This document shows, one piece after another, positions 3,705 to 12,742 of a stretch of 43,396 nt of DNA. Position 1 is the stretch's first letter; every line of letters starts with the position of its first letter. The notes under the pieces were generated by a model. It searched no databases and was not told the origin of the DNA. It worked only from the letters and a program-made list of their open reading frames with translations. Where the stretch lies: assembly GCA_019237325.1 (NCBI GenBank), contig JAFAHI010000679.1:1-43396 (forward strand), in the 5' to 3' direction. The DNA comes from Verrucomicrobiota bacterium (lineage in GTDB: Bacteria > Verrucomicrobiota > Verrucomicrobiia > Chthoniobacterales > JAFAMB01). Both the position numbers and the translations under genes were made by a program.

Positions 3705-3735
3705 GGCCGCTCGGGCGGTTCTAACCCGAGCGGCC
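3705..3735. terminator. GC-rich hairpin (11-bp stem, 9-nt loop), terminator-like
   Basis: ggccgctcggg-cggttctaa-cccgagcggcc, followed by the T-containing 'tgcgtttcccgttt'. No adjacent gene end, so the function is unclear. Confidence 0.3.
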
Positions 3736-3946: not shown

Positions 3947-4873
3947 TTATGCTTCCCGCTGAGCCAGGAATTGGGCTAAAGCATCCGCAATGATGGGTCG
4001 AGCAGGAGATTCGTAAAAAAGGAAAGCCGGAGATGTGTTCACCTCGAAGCAATAATACTCTCCGGACGGAGTCTCTTTCAGATCGATTCCGGACAGCGCC
4101 AGCCCGAGCTCTTTCGTAAGTCTGATACAATTGGCTGAGATGTCTTCGGGAAGTACCGCGGGAACCATGCTTAGACTGTAACCTTCCTCGCCAGCATACC
4201 GGTAGTCGACCGCCTCACACTGAATCCGGACCGCAAACCATTGTTCGCCGATGACGTGCACCCTGATGTTCTCACCAGCAATATACTCCTGAAACTGCGC
4301 TGGACAGTTTTCTAGAAGCTCCAAGCGTCCAAAATCGTCTTTTGTCATTGGGTGCACCGTCGAACGGACGCCGCCGATCGATTTAAAGATTACTTTTTCG
4401 CCGCATTCAACGAAGAAGCTGGCAACTGCTTCTGGATCATTGGTCACAAGCGTCTCGGGGATCTTGAAACCAAACCGACGAATCAATAAGGCCTGGTAAG
4501 GTTTGCTACGATTAGAGTACGTCGCGACGGGCCGGTTCAGGACGTTGCACGGAAGATTATTCAGAACCGCTGCCAGCCGAGCGTCGGTCTCAGGGTAAGC
4601 TTGCCCTTTGCCGTCCGCTTTCTCTCCCTCTTCTTCGGATTCATGCAGCTCGACGTTTCGAAAATAGACACCGCTAAGCTCGTCAAACTCGATTCGCCAA
4701 TCATGAGTGGATATCGATCCGCAAGGCCGACCGGCGATCCAGGTCAAATCTAGATCGGCGCCGCGAGGAAATCCGCCGAGATCCAATCGGCGATAATCGA
4801 TTTTAAGTAAATCGAGCCGAGAGCAAAGAAATGCCGTCACCGGCTCGTATGGATGGCCACAAACTAAAACCAT
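3947..4873 (-). CDS. ATP-grasp ligase, MvdC/MvdD-like (RiPP/graspetide maturase type)
   Basis: 308 aa. ATP-grasp motifs 'FQEYIAGENIRVHVIG' and 'SGIDLKETPSGEYYCFEVNTSPAF' (Mg-binding E-x-N). The 'AVDYRY' segment and a pre-ATP-grasp N-domain fit this type. The start overlaps the upstream gene by 10 nt. Confidence 0.8.
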   Translation of the reverse strand: MVLVCGHPYEPVTAFLCSRLDLLKIDYRRLDLGGFPRGADLDLTWIAGRPCGSISTHDWRIEFDELSGVYFRNVELHESEEEGEKADGKGQAYPETDARLAAVLNNLPCNVLNRPVATYSNRSKPYQALLIRRFGFKIPETLVTNDPEAVASFFVECGEKVIFKSIGGVRSTVHPMTKDDFGRLELLENCPAQFQEYIAGENIRVHVIGEQWFAVRIQCEAVDYRYAGEEGYSLSMVPAVLPEDISANCIRLTKELGLALSGIDLKETPSGEYYCFEVNTSPAFLFYESPARPIIADALAQFLAQREA

Positions 4874-5607
4874 GAGTCGGTTGCGTCACGGGTCGGGCCT
4901 GCACTCTTTGAGTTGGTCAGGAAATCGATTAACTCGACTATGATTTCCCGACGGCTTGATAAGCCGAATTCGTGATACTTTGGAAAAGGTTCTACCGCTG
5001 CGACCTGCGGTTTGCCCATCGAATCGGTTATCCGGAACTCGAGATAACTGAGACCAAGCGATTCGGCGAACCCAACAAGAGAATCATTGATGCGGTCCAA
5101 TCTGCCGGGTGCACCTTGATCCCACACGGCTCTCGAACCGATCACCGCAACCGGATATGAAGGCACGGCCTGCTCCGAGCCCGTGGACAGCAGTTCGAGA
5201 TCGAACCGCTCAATGCGCCCGCGCCAAAACTCTAATGATTCCACGGGCTCAAACCATAGTTCGGGAGGGTACCGATTAATAACCGGGCATGGCAACCCCC
5301 AAGTCCAACCCAAAAGAGCTGCCTCTTTCTCTGCATGGACATAAGTGGCTTCGTCCAGCGCCCAACCCTCCTTCTGGGCGAACGGGCTCTTTCGCACAAA
5401 GACCGCCGAAATCTCTGCTTCGAAACTCGCGCCGCCGGTCTCTAAGCGGAAGTTAGTAGACCATCTGTCAGTACCTAGCCGCCAGGAAATCTTCGCCGGA
5501 CTACAATATAGGTCTTGGATCGCTCGCACTGAATGCCCGCGCTCCGTCAGCCCTTTCCGCAAGTCGAGGCACAAAGGATCGCCAGTGCAGTTGACTAAGA
5601 GAACCAA
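4864..5607 (-). CDS. Degenerate ATP-grasp paralog (probably non-catalytic partner)
   Basis: 247 aa. The N-terminus (MVLLVN...LPCPVINRYP) parallels that of 3947..4873 (MVLVCG...LPCNVLNRP). The C-terminus 'LGLSYLEFRITDSMGKPQVAAVEPFPKY' parallels 'LGLALSGIDLKETPSGEYYCFEVNTSPAF'. The central nucleotide-binding segment is missing and the E-x-N Asn is lost. Confidence 0.6.
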   Translation of the reverse strand: MVLLVNCTGDPLCLDLRKGLTERGHSVRAIQDLYCSPAKISWRLGTDRWSTNFRLETGGASFEAEISAVFVRKSPFAQKEGWALDEATYVHAEKEAALLGWTWGLPCPVINRYPPELWFEPVESLEFWRGRIERFDLELLSTGSEQAVPSYPVAVIGSRAVWDQGAPGRLDRINDSLVGFAESLGLSYLEFRITDSMGKPQVAAVEPFPKYHEFGLSSRREIIVELIDFLTNSKSAGPTRDATDSWF

Positions 5608-5612
5608 GGTAG

Positions 5613-6338
5613 CTATTCGCCGAGACCCTTACCGAATACAAAGTTGACACCTGTTCCTTGCCCAGGGTTAGTCGGCGTCGCTGTGAATCGAAAGAATCTT
5701 AGCAGGATCAAAATATATTTCGGCCTGAGCGGGGCAACCGGGCTCGTGAGATGAGAATTTGCTCCCGCATCCTCTTCAACATCGTTCTCGATAGCGCCCA
5801 AGATCTCATACGACTTCGACTGACCGGACGAATGATTAGTCATCGTAAATGTCGCTTGATCCAGCAATTCGGCAATGTCGATAAGGCTTAGTTCATCAAA
5901 TGTGCTACTAAAATCGTGGCCGCTATGTGACGCCTTAGGCTTGCTTGGCAATTTGCCGCTCAGCACATAAGAATCACCCTCTATTTTGGTCCCGTTGAGG
6001 TAGGTATCGATCTGGAATGTGAAATGGTCTAAGAGCTCGATGACGTCCTTGAGAGAAAGCTTCTCTAGCGGCATCGACAAACGAGGATCGTCCTCGGTTT
6101 TCTGACCAGTGATTCCGTATATCGAAGCCGAGATTGGCCTATGCGTGACTCGGTCAGTGCATATCTTATTTACTATCGGATAGGCGTTTGGGAGGAACTT
6201 AGTAGCGAGATCTTCAAGATATCGTTTACCGAGCGGAAGATTTCCGCCCTGACCCTTTTTGGGTTTTGTAAAGGATTTGCCGGGCATGATGGTTGGTTTT
6301 CTAGGATTATATAAACGAAATCCCGGCAAAAATTTCAA
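5613..6338 (-). CDS. Two-repeat protein, candidate multi-core graspetide precursor
   Basis: 241 aa from TTG 6338, or 224 aa from ATG 6287. Internal duplication 'LSLKDVIELLDHFTFQIDTYLNGTKIEGD' / 'LSLIDIAELLDQATFTMTNHSSGQSKSYEILGAIENDVEEDAG'. It ends 5 nt before the ATP-grasp paralog. Confidence 0.55.
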   Translation of the reverse strand: MKFLPGFRLYNPRKPTIMPGKSFTKPKKGQGGNLPLGKRYLEDLATKFLPNAYPIVNKICTDRVTHRPISASIYGITGQKTEDDPRLSMPLEKLSLKDVIELLDHFTFQIDTYLNGTKIEGDSYVLSGKLPSKPKASHSGHDFSSTFDELSLIDIAELLDQATFTMTNHSSGQSKSYEILGAIENDVEEDAGANSHLTSPVAPLRPKYILILLRFFRFTATPTNPGQGTGVNFVFGKGLGE

Positions 6339-6401: not shown

Positions 6402-9314
6402 TCAGTGAGGGAAGCTCCTCTCTATCTCGGCAATACGAGCCCGGGTTTCAGCGTCTTTCTTGTCAAAGCTGGCCATCAATTCCTGGAAACTGCTGTCTTG
6501 CTTAAAGACATCCAGGGAAGGATCGTCCCGCAAAAGATTGACTGCATTCGGTAACACGCTGATTGATTTCGGAAAAAGCTTACGCAAGAGCTCGTTCGCT
6601 TCATCTCTAAGCCCTAGAATCCGGTCGCTGACAGCGAGGTAGTATATCGCGTCCCGGTCCGTCGGGTGTATGCTGAGAAGCGATTTAGCTTGAGCCTGCA
6701 ATTTCGTTGCCTCAGCGCTAGCCCTGGTCGCGTCGCCCGACAAGTGATAGGCCAAAGCCGAGTGAAACTGGGCCCAGGCATCAGTGTTCGCCTTCGCCTG
6801 TGTAACCTGAATTACAAATGGCCAATCACTCAACCGTTCCGCACATTCGACCCGCAAATCGAGAGCGGATGGATTATAAGCGACGGCATCAGGAGGGAGA
6901 TCTTTCAGCTCGTTAAACGCCTTTTGATAGTCGCGCCGTTGGGCCAGCAGCTCACATTCTAACATCTTCCGCCGATCCGGATCGCTTTCGAGCTGAAGGG
7001 TTTTTTGCATCCATTTTTCGCGCAAGTCGTTCTCACCTATGACCGCGCAGATATAAGCCAAGAGATACGCCTTCCGCGGATCATTTGGATCGAGAGAATA
7101 CGACTTTCGCAGCATGGAATAGGCTTCGAAGTCTACCGATGAGCCTAGCCTTTGGCTGGCGGCCCTGAAATTAACCTCCGCATCGTTCGGAGCGAGCCGA
7201 AGCGCCTTGTTAATCGCTTCTCCAGCCTGATCGAATAAGCTTTTCCAAACGTAAGCTCGGGAAAGGACGACGTAGGCACGAGCCTGCGCCGGATCTATGG
7301 AAACGGCACGGTTGCCAAGGTCGATCGCTGAATCTACCCAGAACGCCTCCTCCCCAAAGCGGACATTCCGATCGATGTAGGCGTTAGCAAGACCCACATA
7401 GGCCAGCGAAAATTTAGGATCTAACTCTAAAGCCTGCCGGTAAAGCTCTACGGCTTTTTCGTTATCGTCCTTGTGGCGAAGGAGGTAGTAGGCCCGCCCC
7501 TGGAGAAAAAGATCGTACGCTGTGACGTTGTCCGTCGGTTTCTGCTGAATCTCGTCACGTTCGTTTGGGCTGAGGCGCACTTGGAGAGCTGAAGCCAGGT
7601 TTTCAGCGACATCTGTTTGAATAGCGAACAGGTCTCTCATTTCTCGGTTATAGGCGGCCCCCCAAAGGCGTTTGCCGGTCCGAGCATCGTATAGAACAGC
7701 GATAATTTTAATCTCTTGGTCCAACCGCTGCACACTGCTCTCCAGCACCGTTTGTACGTTCAATTCGCGGCCGATCTCATGCAGCGATTTCCTTGGTACT
7801 CCCGGTGCGGCCTTATATCCAAGGACCGAGTCGCGGGAGATAACCCGGAGGTCCGCAATCTTCGAAAGCTGAAAGATAACCTCGGTCGTAAGTCCATCGC
7901 TAAGATAATCGTTTTGCTTGTCTCCACCCACGTTATCAAATGGCAAAACCGCCACGGACTTCTCCCCTCCCCCTGCAGCAGGCATGCCGGGATGAAAGAA
8001 AAAGTACGCTCCTAGCACGCCGGCCAACACCAAGGCCACACCGCCGCCGATGAGGTAACTTTTTCCCAAGAGATGCCTTTTCCGCCGGGTTGCTGGAACC
8101 GGCACGCTCGTTTGCGCCACTCTGTGTCCCGCAAGGCTCCGCTGGGTCGCACGCACTATCGCCAAGAGATCTTCCGGAGTTTGCGGCCGGTCTTTCGGGT
8201 CTTTCTCAAGCAAATGGGTTAGCAACGCCACCATCGGTTGCGGGAAGTATTTCAGTTTGCTGATTGGTAACGGCGCTTGGAGATGTTGGGCCGCTACCTC
8301 CGATGGCGTACCGATAAACGGCGCGGATTTGGTCAACATCTGCCATAAGGTGACGCCGACCGAGTAGAGATCCGATCTTATATCGACCGGTCCGCAGCTG
8401 ATCTGCTCGGGACTCGCGTATCGCGGGGTACCCAAGAAAATTCCAGGTTCGGAGGCGGAAGATTCCTCTATGTCGCCAGTGGCGAACTTTACTAACCCGA
8501 AATCGATCACTTTGGCGGTTAGTTGGCCGTGGCTGTCTCGGGTCAGGATGATATTGGCGGGTTTGATGTCCCGGTGTACCAGCCCAGCTTCATGAGCGGC
8601 CGCCAGCGCAGAAGCGATTTGGGCCGTGATCTCCAGCGCTAATTTCGCGTCCAGTGGTCCGTGTTGGGCGATAAAAGCTTCAAGGGTTTGCCCCTCGATT
8701 AATTCCATCGCATAGAAATAGGAAGCTTCGGTGGAACCGAGATAGTAGATCGATGCGACGAAGGGATGGCGCAGCGACGCGGCGGCGCGCGCTTCCCGCA
8801 AGAAGCGGTTCTTAAGCGATTCGTTATGAAGCAGCCGGCTCGAAATCACTTTTAATGCTACCGGGCGTCGCAAGGTGGTGTCGGACGCTTTGTAAGTAAT
8901 CCCCATGGCTCCCCGGCCGAGCTCAACTGGTTTGCCATCGGAGTCGATCTCAACTTCGAAATGGGCATATCGCCGTTGGAAATGTTCGGCGACTAACAGG
9001 CTTAGATCAGCTGCTTCATCTGAAAACGAATCCATTGAGCTGCCGCTGGCCTGGCGGAGCATTTCTGCGCCCGGCGGCAGAGGTTGGTTCGGCGGTAACC
9101 CTTCAGTGGCGCCAGAGGCTTCCGCCTCTGCTTCGCTACGGCGCGACAAGTCCGCATCTCCCGCCGGGGGACCTTGGCTCGGTGACTCGCCCTTCACTTC
9201 GCTTTGGCGCGACGAATCCGCCTCCGCTTCGCTACGGCGCGGCGAACCAGATTCGGGATTTGGCGGTGTCTGGTTTTCTGGGTCGTCGGGTTTCCGCTCG
9301 CTACCGGCGCTCAT
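6402..9314 (-). CDS. Ser/Thr protein kinase with TM helix and extracytoplasmic TPR domain
   Basis: 970 aa. Hanks motifs 'GRGAMGITYKA', 'VALKVI', 'HRDIKPANIIL', 'DFGLVK' and 'GTPRYASPEQ'. One TM helix (LIGGGVALVLAGVLGAYFFF), a 'VAVLPFDNVGGD' module, then many TPR-like repeats. The start overlaps the sigma-gene stop (ATGA). Confidence 0.9.
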   Translation of the reverse strand: MSAGSERKPDDPENQTPPNPESGSPRRSEAEADSSRQSEVKGESPSQGPPAGDADLSRRSEAEAEASGATEGLPPNQPLPPGAEMLRQASGSSMDSFSDEAADLSLLVAEHFQRRYAHFEVEIDSDGKPVELGRGAMGITYKASDTTLRRPVALKVISSRLLHNESLKNRFLREARAAASLRHPFVASIYYLGSTEASYFYAMELIEGQTLEAFIAQHGPLDAKLALEITAQIASALAAAHEAGLVHRDIKPANIILTRDSHGQLTAKVIDFGLVKFATGDIEESSASEPGIFLGTPRYASPEQISCGPVDIRSDLYSVGVTLWQMLTKSAPFIGTPSEVAAQHLQAPLPISKLKYFPQPMVALLTHLLEKDPKDRPQTPEDLLAIVRATQRSLAGHRVAQTSVPVPATRRKRHLLGKSYLIGGGVALVLAGVLGAYFFFHPGMPAAGGGEKSVAVLPFDNVGGDKQNDYLSDGLTTEVIFQLSKIADLRVISRDSVLGYKAAPGVPRKSLHEIGRELNVQTVLESSVQRLDQEIKIIAVLYDARTGKRLWGAAYNREMRDLFAIQTDVAENLASALQVRLSPNERDEIQQKPTDNVTAYDLFLQGRAYYLLRHKDDNEKAVELYRQALELDPKFSLAYVGLANAYIDRNVRFGEEAFWVDSAIDLGNRAVSIDPAQARAYVVLSRAYVWKSLFDQAGEAINKALRLAPNDAEVNFRAASQRLGSSVDFEAYSMLRKSYSLDPNDPRKAYLLAYICAVIGENDLREKWMQKTLQLESDPDRRKMLECELLAQRRDYQKAFNELKDLPPDAVAYNPSALDLRVECAERLSDWPFVIQVTQAKANTDAWAQFHSALAYHLSGDATRASAEATKLQAQAKSLLSIHPTDRDAIYYLAVSDRILGLRDEANELLRKLFPKSISVLPNAVNLLRDDPSLDVFKQDSSFQELMASFDKKDAETRARIAEIERSFPH
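9121..9247. repeat. Three copies of a 16-17-nt motif (cttcgctayggcgcgrc) inside the kinase 5' coding region
   Basis: Copies near 9131-9147, 9197-9213 and 9227-9243. On the minus strand they encode the reiterated 'RRSEAEA / RQSEVKG / RRSEAEA' in the disordered N-terminus. Confidence 0.6.
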
Positions 9315-10081
9315 TTCAATCGCCGTCCTTCGGTCACCAGAAGCGCCTGGTACAACGCATGGATCTCCGCGTCGATGTCCCCAGGATCAACCAATGTCTG
9401 AGCTACTTCATCGCGCAGAAGGGCCGAGTATCGTTTACGCATTCGGAACACCAGGGTCTTAACTCCGGCGACGGTCAGCCCCAGCTCGGCCGCAACCTCA
9501 TCATAGCCTTCGCTGAGATTTGTTCCGGTTAGATCAAGATAGCCGCGTAGCCGGTCGAATTGGGCGGTCTTACCCACTTGCCGATATTCTTCGCTGAGCC
9601 GGACCATGGCTCGCTCCAGTAGCAGCTGTGCCCATTGAGCATCGAAAAAGACCTCCGCCGTCACGTTATCCTTCGGTTCGATCTGGTCGCGTTCATTCGC
9701 TTCCTGCGCATCAAGCGCCACTAACGGATTTCCTCCACCCCGTTTCGCTGCCCCGGCTCGGTGGCGCACCGCCGAGATATGGTTCTGAAATGAAGCCAGC
9801 AAGAATGATCGGAACCGGCCGCGGTTCGGATCAGCGTGCTTTAAGCTGACCTTATCCAGAAGGTGCAAAAAGAAACTCTGGGTCAGGTCCTGGGCGTCTT
9901 CATCGCTAAAACCTCTGTAACGAGCGAAATGGTATAGGGGATACCAATACCGGGAACAGAATTCGGACAAAGACTCCTCATGGAATGGTGACGTGACGTC
10001 ACCAGAACGAAGCACTAGGTCCCAGCGAGTGGTATGGAACTGCATCCCTGCCTGCTGTTCCTTACTTTGCCTGGTATTCAC
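9311..10081 (-). CDS. ECF-type RNA polymerase sigma factor (kinase-associated)
   Basis: 256 aa. Region 2 'YWYPLYHFARYRGFSDEDAQDLTQSFFLHLL', region 4 HTH 'YDEVAAELGLTVAGVKTLVFRMRKRY'. There is a 4-nt overlap with the downstream kinase. Confidence 0.85.
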   Translation of the reverse strand: MNTRQSKEQQAGMQFHTTRWDLVLRSGDVTSPFHEESLSEFCSRYWYPLYHFARYRGFSDEDAQDLTQSFFLHLLDKVSLKHADPNRGRFRSFLLASFQNHISAVRHRAGAAKRGGGNPLVALDAQEANERDQIEPKDNVTAEVFFDAQWAQLLLERAMVRLSEEYRQVGKTAQFDRLRGYLDLTGTNLSEGYDEVAAELGLTVAGVKTLVFRMRKRYSALLRDEVAQTLVDPGDIDAEIHALYQALLVTEGRRLK

Positions 10082-10194
10082 CGCGTGTACCTCTCTAAAT
10101 CTTTTAAGCCGAAAGCCTTCCAGGGGACAATGAATTTTGTTGGGAAACTGGCGAGCCGCGGTATGGGCAGGTCAGCCGCAATGCGGCGGCTCAT

Positions 10195-10223
10195 GATAGC
10201 CTAGGGCCTAGCCCTAGGCTATC
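10195..10223. repeat. Palindrome (12-bp arms, 5-nt loop) gatagcctaggg-cctag-ccctaggctatc
   Basis: Read directly. It lies in the 400-nt gap upstream of the ECF sigma gene. Confidence 0.7.
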
Positions 10224-10481: not shown

Positions 10482-11675
10482 CTAGCTCCTGGCTCCTCCT
10501 AGATATTCCATCACTGCATCAACCCCGCCCTTCTTAAAAGGAACCCTGAATTCGGCCAGGCTCATCTCGACCCCGCACAGCGTTCCGCATAGCATGAGAT
10601 CATTGAAATCGCCAAGATGACCGATTCGAAATGCGCGGCCCTTGAGTTTTCCGAGACCGGACCCCAGGGACAAATTGAATTTCTCGAGGACAACGTTCCG
10701 AAACGCGGCTTCATCAAAACCGCTCGGTAAAAAGATGGCAGTCAAAGAACCGCTATATTCGTGCGGATCGGCGCACACCAATTCGAGTCCCCAAGCGTTG
10801 ACGGCCGCACGAGTTGCTTCAGCGTGCCTCTGATGCCGCTTAAATACTGCATCCAGGCCCTCCTCCTCCACCAACATGGAGATGGCTTCACGCAACCCGA
10901 ATAACAGATTCGTTGCCGGCGTATATGGGAAAAAGCCCTGCTTGTTCGGTTCGACCATTTCTGTCCAGGACCAAAACGAACGCGGTAGCCGGGCGGTACG
11001 AGACGCCTCGAGCGCTTTTTGGCTAACGGCGTTAAAGCCGAGGCCTGGCGGCAACATCAAACCTTTTTGGGAGCCGCCAATAGCAACATCGACGCCCCAT
11101 TCGTCATGTCGATAGTCGATGCTCCCAAGTGAGGAGATAGTATCGACCATCAGTAAGGCCGGGTGACCTGCACGATCCATGGATTGTCGGACCTCCGCGA
11201 TCCGGCTGGTGACCCCGGTCGAGGTTTCGTTATGGACGCACATGACCGCCTTGATTTCTTTGCGAGCATCGTCGCGCAGCCTGGCTTCAACGGCTTCGGG
11301 TGGCACGCCGTGTCGCCAATCCCCAGGGACAAAGTCAACGATGATACCGAAGTTTAGCGCCAGCTTTTGCCAGAGGGTGCCGAAATGCCCAGTCTCGAAC
11401 ATCAATACCCGATCACCGGGTGAGAGCGTGTTTACAATCGCGGCTTCCCAGGCGCCGGTTCCGCTGGATGGAAAGATGAACACTTGGCCCTGAGATGTCT
11501 GGAAGACTCTTTTCATGCCCTCTAAACAGTCATGACCAAGCTGGGAAAACTCCTGACTGCGGTGATCGATGGTGGGACGATCAATCGCGCGGAGCACCCG
11601 ATCGGGCACATTGGTCGGACCAGGGATTTGGAGAAAGTGTCTGCCAGGGAAGCGGGAGTAGGGTTCGCGGTTCAC
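10482..11675 (-). CDS. Class V aminotransferase (serine-glyoxylate / alanine-glyoxylate type)
   Basis: 397 aa. 'PGRHFLQIPGPTNVPDRVLRA' N-terminus and PLP-lysine motif 'GGSQKGLMLPPGLG'. GTG start. The first and last about 5 codons lie in repeat units. Confidence 0.9.
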   Translation of the reverse strand: MNREPYSRFPGRHFLQIPGPTNVPDRVLRAIDRPTIDHRSQEFSQLGHDCLEGMKRVFQTSQGQVFIFPSSGTGAWEAAIVNTLSPGDRVLMFETGHFGTLWQKLALNFGIIVDFVPGDWRHGVPPEAVEARLRDDARKEIKAVMCVHNETSTGVTSRIAEVRQSMDRAGHPALLMVDTISSLGSIDYRHDEWGVDVAIGGSQKGLMLPPGLGFNAVSQKALEASRTARLPRSFWSWTEMVEPNKQGFFPYTPATNLLFGLREAISMLVEEEGLDAVFKRHQRHAEATRAAVNAWGLELVCADPHEYSGSLTAIFLPSGFDEAAFRNVVLEKFNLSLGSGLGKLKGRAFRIGHLGDFNDLMLCGTLCGVEMSLAEFRVPFKKGGVDAVMEYLGGARS

Positions 11676-11872
11676 GGTTCGCAGCTCGCGGTTGGTGGTG
11701 GCTTGTTCGGCGGTTGTAGCGGATTAGTTGGGGTGGCTCAGATGGGACTTATGGGACCAATGGGACTAATGGGGACCATATGACAAGTCTTCTCAATGGG
11801 AAACCGGCAAGCTGCAGTAGAAGCTGGAGCTCAACTGCCAACGGCGAACCGTGAACTGTGAACTGCGAAACC
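11661..11872. repeat. Hairpin element with GTTCGCR/GTTCACR heptamer arms and an internal ATGGGACY octamer array
   Basis: Left arm 11661-11694, right arm 11838-11872. Internal 'atgggacttatgggaccaatgggactaatggggaccata' at 11742-11780. It spans the whole intergenic region. Confidence 0.75.
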
Positions 11873-12516
11873 TACTCCGGTATTGGCGGATAGCTGGCTC
11901 GGAATCGTTCGTAGGCATCTTCATCCGAGATCATGCCTTCGATCGCGGCGAAAACCGGTTCGGGGCGGTAAATACCGCTCAACAGGACGGTATCTTCAAT
12001 GGCGCTACGGAGAAGAAACGTTGGGCGCTGATTTACGGGTAACAGACTGAATTCGGCGGTGCTGGCTTTTATGGCATCCGCGATCGTCTGATCGTTGACC
12101 GCGTGTTCCAGTTCAGATTGGCTGATGCCACTTGCTTTTGCGGCAAGTTCAAGCGCGACCTCGAGACGAAGAATCGGTTTACCTTCTATTAATCCTTCGG
12201 TCTTGAGGATTTCTCTCACCGCGTCGCCGTGACCGAGAGCTTCGGCCGCCTGGATTACGGCATTCGGCACCCAGGTGGCCTGGCCTGACTTCTCGATCCA
12301 GTTATGATTGAACCGCCGCCCGGTAACGAAATCGCACCGGTCGTAGTACCATTTCTCCTGTTCGAGGCCGGCCGCCATCGGTTTGCCGTCATTAATCAAA
12401 GCGATCTTTCGAACGATCGGTACTCGAGAGCGGTAGCGCTTGTTGATGGCGACGAGGACTTCGTCGCCCATGGCGCACCACATTGAACAAACATCGTAGT
12501 AGTAGGTGAGGTTCAT
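11872..12516 (-). CDS. DsbA/FrnE-like thioredoxin-fold protein
   Basis: Trimmed to the ATG at 12516 (MNLTYYYDVCSMWCAMG...). 214 aa. A Cys pair sits where DsbA-like proteins carry 'D..CPWC', here with CxxxC spacing. The upstream 39 codons of the track ORF are repeat sequence. Confidence 0.65.
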   Translation of the reverse strand: MNLTYYYDVCSMWCAMGDEVLVAINKRYRSRVPIVRKIALINDGKPMAAGLEQEKWYYDRCDFVTGRRFNHNWIEKSGQATWVPNAVIQAAEALGHGDAVREILKTEGLIEGKPILRLEVALELAAKASGISQSELEHAVNDQTIADAIKASTAEFSLLPVNQRPTFLLRSAIEDTVLLSGIYRPEPVFAAIEGMISDEDAYERFRASYPPIPE

Positions 12517-12521
12517 TGTTT

Positions 12522-12609
12522 GCAGTGAGCAGTGAGCAGTGAGCAGTGAGTAGGGGTGCGCTAGGGGGTGGCGGGAATGGGACCAATGAGACTCATGGGA
12601 CTTATGGGA
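12522..12609. repeat. Tandem (GCAGTGA)x4 followed by an ATGGGAC-type octamer array
   Basis: 'gcagtgagcagtgagcagtgagcagtgagtagg' at 12522-12554 and 'aatgggaccaatgagactcatgggacttatggga' at 12576-12609. Confidence 0.7.
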
Positions 12610-12742
12610 TCGGAGGGTGGCGAGCAACTGCAAACCGCTAACTGCTCACCGCTAACCTTTAACAGCGTCAGGAAAGCGACCAGCCCATGGTTGCCACGCC
12701 TCATATTGGTGCGCCAGAGCGCACAACAATCCGTTCTGTCCT

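Follow-up and report, generated by a model that had tools for sequence, protein, structure and literature searches.

A graspetide-type ATP-grasp ligase, its degenerate paralog and a repeat protein with a conserved Lys-x-x-x-Glu terminus: a putative kinase-linked protein-modification module in Verrucomicrobiota

In this work we have analysed a stretch of DNA of 43,396 nucleotides from a soil bacterium of the Verrucomicrobiota (GTDB lineage Chthoniobacterales; assembly GCA_019237325.1, contig JAFAHI010000679.1), referred to below as the window, and in particular three consecutive genes on its minus strand, which we call A, B and C. Their open reading frames occupy positions 5613-6338, 4864-5607 and 3947-4873, with a gap of 5 nt between A and B and an overlap of 10 nt between B and C. 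An earlier sequence-only reading of the window had pointed out the same tight packing, and its coordinates were confirmed; it took the three genes for a graspetide-like cluster made up of a peptide precursor and two ATP-grasp proteins. The locus gives the impression of an offshoot of graspetide biosynthesis that acts on proteins, and not of a classic cluster for a peptide of leader and core. The three products are as follows:

5613..6287, minus strand: protein A, 224 aa, a globular repeat protein in its AlphaFold2 model and the proposed substrate of B and C
4864..5607, minus strand: protein B, 247 aa, a predicted pseudo-ATP-grasp paralog of C (hhalign comparison with C, residue losses)
3947..4873, minus strand: protein C, 308 aa, a graspetide-type ATP-grasp ligase (NCBIfam, PDB sequence and Foldseek matches)

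Over its full length C matched the NCBIfam models TIGR04187 (1e-39), MvdD (6e-31) and MvdC (6e-25), with rimK_fam at 5e-13. No NCBIfam model reached its trusted cut-off; the scores with the RimK and LysX models, 49 bits for rimK_fam (cut-off 143) and 28 bits for LysX (cut-off 276), do not make C a member of either family. Among PDB sequences the best match was PsnB, the synthetase of the group 2 graspetide plesiocin (1.4e-26), followed by MdnC (2.4e-21) and CdnC (6e-18); PruB, MdnB and AMdnB were also found, and RimK matched at 4e-7. The AlphaFold2 model of C (predicted local distance difference test, pLDDT, 85; predicted template-modelling score, pTM, 0.84) gave the same picture in a Foldseek search, where the top 32 matches were all graspetide macrocyclases (E 1.8e-25 to 2.6e-16, template-modelling (TM) scores 0.61-0.77). 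The best structural match was MdnC (E 1.8e-25, TM 0.75), and after the macrocyclases came LysX, ArgX and RimK (E 5e-16 to 1e-14, TM 0.64-0.68). The study of PsnB (PDB 7drm) singled out Arg213 and a D(F/W)R loop for graspetide enzymes. C has both features, R204 being the equivalent of Arg213 and D223-Y-R225 that of the loop, and it also keeps the nucleotide and magnesium motifs K164, D264 and E277-x-N279; all of these residues, Y224 included, are invariant in 55 sequences of the C family. With its pre-ATP-grasp domain C has the make-up of a macrocyclase of the MdnB/MdnC/PsnB family. Sequence and model together support the placement of C with the graspetide macrocyclases and not with RimK or glutathione synthetase, and C is predicted to be a catalytically competent ATP-grasp enzyme of the macrocyclase type. 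The sequence-only reading had assigned the last gene to the microviridin or omega-ester type and had named a place among RimK- or glutathione-synthetase-type enzymes as the contrary outcome; the TIGR04187, PsnB and MdnC matches and the structural ranking agree with its assignment. Proteins closely related to C carry annotations that place them in metagenome-assembled genomes of Verrucomicrobia, one example being JO025_19540 with 85% identity to C.

Protein B has no significant match in Pfam or among PDB sequences and belongs to no NCBIfam or PADLOC family. Its profile, built from 56 sequences, nevertheless aligns with that of C over residues 1-306 of C (hhalign, probability 99.7%, E 5e-26). 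Across the 56 sequences the residues K124, K164, Q193, Q195, R204 and H206 of C are replaced or deleted, and in the joint alignment B is likewise without the D223-Y-R225 loop, D264, E277 and N279, so that it has neither the active-site arginine nor the loop of the graspetide enzymes. In the clade of the window B has in addition lost the central nucleotide-binding subdomain, which makes it some 50 residues shorter (247 aa instead of about 300). As the ATP-binding and catalytic residues of the C type have all been lost, B is best described as a predicted pseudoenzyme, a catalytically dead paralog of C, and the sequence-only reading was right to call the middle gene a degenerate ATP-grasp. Judging from the gene arrangement, B is translationally coupled to C. 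One segment, E...L-x-C-P-V-V-N-R, is common to all 56 B and all 55 C sequences (C residues 95-114, window 4532-4588) and might serve as a dimer interface or in the docking of the substrate.

Protein A belongs to no family in Pfam, NCBIfam or PADLOC, and its relatives are few: only 28 close homologs (at least 69% identity) were found in 5.8 billion clusters, and a profile run against 1.84 billion cluster representatives gave only 16 matches. Its reading frame is open back to a TTG at 6338, which gives the 241 residues of the sequence-only reading; all gene callers and all distant homologs instead place the start at the ATG at 6287 (MPGKSF...), for a protein of 224 aa. No signal peptide was found in its sequence. 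The parts of A are:

6096..6245, minus strand: unit 1 (probable), residues 15-64, helix LEDLATKFL and a hairpin, diverged (AlphaFold2 helix 24-34, strands 38-42 and 51-63)
5946..6092, minus strand: unit 2, residues 66-114, helix LSLKDVIELLD and a beta hairpin (AlphaFold2 helix 79-88, strands 89-97 and 106-112)
5784..5924, minus strand: unit 3, residues 122-168, S/T128, helix LSLIDIAELLD and a beta hairpin (BLASTP and profile comparison, AlphaFold2)
5631..5756, minus strand: unit 4, residues 178-219, helix KYILILLRFF and a beta hairpin (AlphaFold2 helix 189-198, strands 199-205 and 212-217)
5616..5630, minus strand: tail K220-G-L-G-E224 with the stop directly after it, the proposed site of ATP-grasp modification

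Units 2 and 3 are similar both in BLASTP (E=3e-6, 33% identity over 46 aa) and at the profile level (E=5e-14), and unit 4 matches the two of them in profile comparisons at about 1e-6 with a probability of 91-92%. Unit 1 resembles units 2 and 3 only weakly in the profile comparisons (P 0.003-0.007 over 38-42 columns). By these comparisons A consists of three clearly homologous units (about residues 66-114, 122-168 and 178-219), and its N-terminal unit, which has the same predicted shape, is a probable fourth, diverged repeat. The internal duplication seen in the sequence-only reading is thus real, although the repeats number three and probably four instead of two. The AlphaFold2 model, made with an alignment of 24 sequences, is a single domain (pLDDT 84.2, pTM 0.81, 122 residues at pLDDT of at least 90) of four units of helix and beta hairpin; residues 1-14 and 221-224 are disordered in it, the latter with pLDDT below 50. 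According to this model A is globular and its tail flexible. A search of PDB and BFVD with the model returned nothing at E<=0.001. The best PDB matches were ABBA prenyltransferases, including the enzymes PagF, KgpF and LimF of RiPPs, peptides made by ribosomes and modified after translation (E about 0.02, TM 0.24-0.30), a likeness which we took as a shared alpha-beta-beta repeat topology only.

The conservation of A was followed in 13 divergent members of the family (23-52% identity) and in a separate alignment of 26 sequences. In the divergent members only three of the 80 D, E, K, S and T positions of A are conserved, namely S/T128, K220 and the terminal E224, and the hairpin residues D94, T95, K101, D105 and the DVEED stretch all vary. 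The larger alignment has only three invariant columns, L74, Y107 and K220, with E224 found in 25 of the 26 sequences, while the residues between the conserved lysine and glutamate change freely (GLG, TLV, TYN, ITS, NHS, IHC and others). A conserved pair of donor and acceptor, K220 and E224, therefore occurs in A at the C-terminal tail only, and the signature of the family, as far as alignments and model can define it, is a flexible tail ending in K-x-x-x-E-COOH. The pair K220...E224-COOH at the disordered tail did not figure in the sequence-only reading. S/T128, kept in 13/13 divergent members, is the only conserved hydroxyl residue among them (codon 5904-5906); it stands in the loop before the third helix, in the motif [FL]-x-[ST]-x-h-x-x-L-x-L, and the pattern L-x-T-x-L-x-E-L around it is also found in the leader of the Glu/Lys protein described below. 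It may be where the adjacent kinase phosphorylates A, or it may serve in recognition.

The gene context of A was readable in eight members of its family. The B-C pair was there in all eight. The order is kinase-A-B-C, with the kinase gene directly 5' of A and usually a sigma factor gene before it, and it holds down to 33% identity in A; the single exception is locus L003, in which C is 46% identical to that of the window and the order is sigma-kinase-B-C-A'. The protein A' ends in ...KIHCE and was matched at E 4.6e-15 by a hidden Markov model (HMM) of the A family built without it; as a query in a homolog search it returned itself only.

A scan of GTDB species genomes with the C profile gave 80 loci. 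In 61 of them B lies directly before C, usually with a 4-nt overlap, and these loci come, going by the titles of their records, from at least ten phyla (Acidobacteriota, Gemmatimonadota, Chloroflexota, Actinomycetota, Pseudomonadota, Bacteroidota, Verrucomicrobiota, Armatimonadota, Deinococcota and Bacillota); loci with C less than about 41% identical are without B. When the flanking reading frames were clustered, the sole further conserved gene, present in 55 loci directly 3' of C, was that of a Glu/Lys-repeat protein of 130-190 aa. Its N-terminus is strongly conserved (PFVxxEDRPEVKIxLDTPLSELRVRDLxAILG) and is followed by a variable number of E-K-x repeats, for example KIEKIEKPEKPEKLEKNEK, and by a coiled-coil-like C-terminal helix (PDPRxEQVIQAVxGLTxQVxQLANQVEELRKK). 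It belongs to no Pfam, NCBIfam or PADLOC family, and no description of the cassette was found in these databases or in the literature covered. Examples among loci L007-L068 are L019 (7015-9557) and L047 (7105-9529, Paracoccus subflavus GY0581). Since only three genes are conserved, the third protein of this mainstream cassette is, on the evidence of gene order, the obvious substrate of B and C, and its Lys/Glu repeats suit an amide-forming ATP-grasp. The window has the first part of the cassette, the dead paralog immediately upstream of the C-type ligase and overlapping it by 10 nt. It has no Glu/Lys-type gene, neither the one with DRPEVK...LSELRVRDL expected downstream of C nor any other in its 43 kb, and A stands in that place. 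Because A takes the place of the Glu/Lys protein, in L003 even the slot after C, the comparison supports A as the one plausible candidate in cis for a partner or substrate. No protease or exporter gene adjoins A, B or C in the window, and the 61 related loci have no conserved protease, transporter or tailoring enzyme, so that the leader-removal and export functions common, if not obligatory, in graspetide clusters are found in neither.

A third type of partner was observed in L010, a kinase- and sigma-linked B-C locus of an uncultured member of Verrucomicrobiae, where a convergent gene after C (L010:9070-10188, minus strand) encodes a protein of 372 aa with a leader-type N-terminus (DRPEVK...VRDL), no E-K repeats and a large beta-rich C-terminal region. 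From these gene orders it seems that the partner protein of the B-C ligase pair has been swapped repeatedly. A further candidate, P0091 (503 aa, on a metagenome contig of 3.2 kb), has a kinase domain fused in frame to C-type residues of about 100-308 with 72% identity; it is without the transmembrane and TPR region, A, B and the N-terminus of C, is most likely a deletion or an assembly chimera, and was not used.

Two further minus-strand genes lie upstream of A, and a hairpin follows C:

9311..10081, minus strand: sigma factor of the extracytoplasmic function (ECF) type, 256 aa, by Pfam domains; 4-nt overlap of its stop with the kinase start
6402..9314, minus strand: Hanks-type Ser/Thr kinase, 970 aa (Pfam Pkinase and TPR families)
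3705..3735, minus strand: terminator-like hairpin with a 12-bp stem of which 10 pairs are G-C (consensus scan), about 210 nt past the stop of C

The consensus scan of the minus strand between 10081 and 3700 found this hairpin as the only good terminator-like site and none between the kinase gene and A; the T-run behind its stem is weak. The hairpin is probably the end of the transcription unit and, since the sole strong site of this kind sits after C, the genes for the sigma factor, the kinase, A, B and C look like one unit of five genes. The kinase has a Pkinase domain at residues 131-380 (2.9e-44), a single hydrophobic segment at about 420-440 and several TPR families in its C-terminal part. 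Its matches to PD-T4-6 in PADLOC were rejected as evidence for a role in defence, as they reflect generic similarity of kinase domains. The matches of the sigma factor (Sigma70_r2 5e-5, Sigma70_r4_2 1e-4, Sigma70_ECF 4e-3) are weak and all under the curated cut-offs; its gene adjoins that of the kinase with the 4-nt overlap, and a sigma gene is also found upstream of the kinase in L001, L003, L006, L010, L067 and L086. In known pairs of ECF sigma factor and Hanks kinase, phosphorylation by the kinase makes the sigma factor active (PMC13147305, PMC8999054). In the ECF43-type pairs (EcfK/PknS; PMC13147305) the sigma gene overlaps that of a transmembrane Ser/Thr kinase and stands upstream of the presumed targets, as it does here, the likeness of our sigma factor being one of gene arrangement alone; an ATP-grasp modification module as the output of such a pair was not found reported in the literature covered. 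By analogy, the sigma factor and the kinase probably control the expression of the A-B-C module.

How does this locus compare with systems already described? The nearest precedent in chemistry is corallotide, a graspetide of group 15 from Corallococcus, where a TIGR04187 enzyme joins Lys and Asp within KxxxD motifs of the 22-kDa precursor CorA, and the synthetase CorB needs a co-encoded partner for full activity (PMC13097080). This type is characterized by repeated KxxxD, a 2-oxoglutarate-Fe(II) oxygenase and a protein of beta-lactamase fold, and it is restricted to Corallococcus (PMC13097080). Our locus shares with it a TIGR04187-type ATP-grasp, a putative partner protein and, on our proposal, a large substrate and the i/i+4 spacing, KxxxD there and KxxxE here. 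However, CorA has five internal KxxxD motifs and A a single K-x-x-x-E at its very C-terminus, the partner is an oxygenase in the one and a dead ATP-grasp paralog in the other, and the predicted globular A comes with an attached kinase and sigma factor. With one terminal KxxxE, no oxygenase or beta-lactamase gene beside A, B and C, and a Verrucomicrobium as host, the locus does not belong to the corallotide type. In the microviridin clusters (MdnA/MdnB/MdnC, or MvdC/MvdD) two paralogous ATP-grasp genes are adjacent as here, but there each ligase is active, one for the esters and the other for the amide, whereas B has lost its catalytic residues; the PFFARFL leader and the TxKYPSDWEE core are missing from A and the MvdC and MvdD scores of C are far below the cut-offs, so the locus is not a microviridin cluster either. 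Plesiocin (PsnA2/PsnB) provides the best sequence match for C, and its LFIEDL leader resembles the L-x-L-x-D-h helix starts of A, but PsnB is a homodimer and PsnA2 a short peptide with cores of Thr-Glu esters; homology between A and PsnA2 could not be shown. The Glu/Lys-protein cassette, for instance that of L047, is closer, with a B-C pair, C 43-49% identical, no protease or exporter and a third partner of protein size; it differs in that this partner is a Glu/Lys protein and not a folded A, and in that kinase and sigma genes are mostly absent. Loci of ATP-grasp branch 8 typically have, as far as the description of Makarova et al. (2022; PMC8939145) goes, an additional truncated inactive ATP-grasp and no predicted precursor. 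The B-C clade may be branch 8, although the fit, judged by description only, is poor, for the branch is described as peptidase-linked and as having only two N-terminal domains, while no peptidase is conserved here. The representative precursors of the RODEO graspetide groups 25, 33-35 and 37-43, to the extent that the source gives them, resemble neither A nor the Glu/Lys proteins. The ring between Lys and the C-terminus in class V lasso peptides was considered as a precedent and rejected, as it is made by a transpeptidase and not by an ATP-grasp enzyme.

We tentatively favour a reading, a little short of probable in our estimation, in which C, partnered by B, makes a lactam between Lys220 and Glu224 on the tail of A, the module thereby modifying a whole folded protein. 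B and C would form a heterodimer in which B substitutes for the non-catalytic subunit of a PsnB-like asymmetric dimer and helps in docking or activation; the asymmetry of the PsnB dimer makes such a pair of enzyme and pseudoenzyme plausible. C with ATP would phosphorylate a carboxylate of Glu224, and attack of the epsilon-amine of Lys220 on the acyl-phosphate would then give an i/i+4 macrolactam with a loss of 18 Da, capping the C-terminus of A. The sigma factor and kinase would turn the module on upon an extracytoplasmic signal, with S/T128 as a possible second control point.

Several observations weigh against this proposal. The chemistry on A is inferred throughout, and the conserved K...E-COOH tail might instead serve for binding. 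The model of A is compact, whereas the known graspetide synthetases mostly act on unstructured peptides, and C reaches 137 bits against the 350-bit trusted cut-off of the curated graspetide-maturase model. LysX, ArgX and RimK, which follow the macrocyclases as structural relatives of C, act differently on C-terminal glutamates of proteins. A also has no demonstrable leader: the HMM of the Glu/Lys leader gave noise-level scores with A, the third helix of A compared with the leader helix in hhalign gave P=0.0097 with a probability of 4%, the N-terminus of A scored 8.7 with the leader region, a score matched by 48 of 200 shuffles, and with the full Glu/Lys alignment it gave P=0.035, matched by 4 of 150 shuffles. 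The two short local matches at P 0.01-0.035 are suggestive at most, and we claim no homology between A and the Glu/Lys protein. Lastly, the A family is small and mostly of one lineage with conserved flanks. Genes for a class-V aminotransferase and a DsbA-like protein lie upstream of the sigma gene (window 10482-11675 and 11872-12633), and the same synteny is kept in L001, L086 and the contig of P0018, whose A is only 31-76% identical; with such a shared flank, part of the gene-order conservation is common descent within one Verrucomicrobial lineage.

Could A instead be an accessory, scaffold or signalling protein, the true substrate of B and C being encoded elsewhere? A might, for example, be a target of the kinase at S/T128, or its K-x-x-x-E-COOH tail might be a docking motif. 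It would fit such a role that A is globular and always next to the kinase, and that S/T128 persists in all divergent members; the kinase also contains TPRs, of which C-terminal acidic motifs are classic ligands, and partner proteins that are not substrates are known from graspetide clusters (MirC and CorC). We nevertheless consider this explanation unlikely, as A replaces the third protein of a three-gene cassette, down to its slot in L003, in a window that offers no Glu/Lys-type gene, and as the TPR region of the kinase lies beyond the transmembrane segment while A has no signal peptide.

Another question is whether C, with B, might ligate Glu224 to an external amine and not to Lys220. The amine could be that of an amino acid, as added to LysW by LysX or ArgX, that of further glutamates, as added to S6 by RimK, or that of a lysine in another protein or in a second molecule of A, as in Pup-like tagging or polymerisation. 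E224 is the very last residue and nearly invariant, A resembles LysW and S6 in being folded with a flexible tail, although it is unrelated to them, and LysX, ArgX and RimK, which all modify the C-terminal Glu of a folded protein, are the structural neighbours of C after the macrocyclases. These enzymes add an external amino acid and close no ring, and the invariant lysine four residues upstream, at the spacing of the corallotide KxxxD donor, has no role in the LysW and RimK systems. As C is nearer to the macrocyclases both in NCBIfam (1e-39 against 5e-13) and in the Foldseek ranking, and the cassette contains no genes for amino-acid biosynthesis, a proteasome or a depupylase-like protein, ligation to an external amine appears to us quite unlikely.

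The interpretation of the sequence-only reading, that A is a long precursor of reiterated leader and core in which C installs ester or amide macrocycles in each repeat, has in its favour the real repeats, the T/S/K- and D/E-rich stretches after each helix, the helix starts (L-x-L-x-D-h) that resemble LFIEDL of group 2 and ELRVRDL of the Glu/Lys proteins, and the precedent of multi-core or very large precursors (plesiocin, corallotide), but it is very improbable, because the supposed leaders LSLKDVIELLD and LSLIDIAELLD are helices of units 2 and 3 in one confidently predicted globular domain, the supposed cores are predicted hairpins in which no donor or acceptor residue is conserved among divergent homologs, and a cleavage motif, a protease and an exporter are all missing.

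The locus, together with the far wider family of B-C pairs, suggests several extensions of what is known of these enzymes. Graspetide ATP-grasp ligases have been studied as macrocyclases for natural products and for peptide engineering; here the natural substrates may be full-length proteins, in the case of A one whose predicted fold matches nothing in PDB or BFVD. This enzyme lineage may act as a heterodimer of enzyme and pseudoenzyme, which fits the half-of-sites behaviour in PsnB crystals. The single Lys-x3-Glu-COOH tail may be a minimal site of recognition and cyclisation, useful as a C-terminal capping tag, and control by a Hanks kinase and an ECF sigma factor points to a physiological role in stress or signalling and not to an antibiotic. 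We also asked whether the B-C pair could stand for a wider principle, a widespread undescribed class of enzyme and obligatory pseudoenzyme that forms Lys-Glu isopeptide bonds on whole proteins, within or between chains. We regard this generalization as doubtful, yet if it were true, B and C could staple or polymerise Glu/Lys coiled-coil proteins covalently, and in Verrucomicrobia the four-repeat alpha/beta protein A would be capped or cross-linked through its K-x-x-x-E tail, the whole being a protein-crosslinking pathway regulated by the kinase and ECF sigma factor and not a route to a natural product. The occurrence of the three-gene Glu/Lys cassette in at least ten phyla, including the cultured Paracoccus subflavus, makes the hypothesis directly testable.

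A minor observation concerns the region upstream of the sigma gene. An intergenic match to the Rfam family Acido-Lenti-1 (RF01687) lies at window positions 10174-10218, with a score exactly equal to the gathering score, and it recurs in the same place in L006 (2441-2485) and L001 (2552-2597). What is matched there is a perfect 13-bp inverted repeat, GATAGCCTAGGGC-TA-GCCCTAGGCTATC, and its strand is therefore ambiguous. The repeat could act as an operator, terminate the aminotransferase gene upstream, or be a small RNA.

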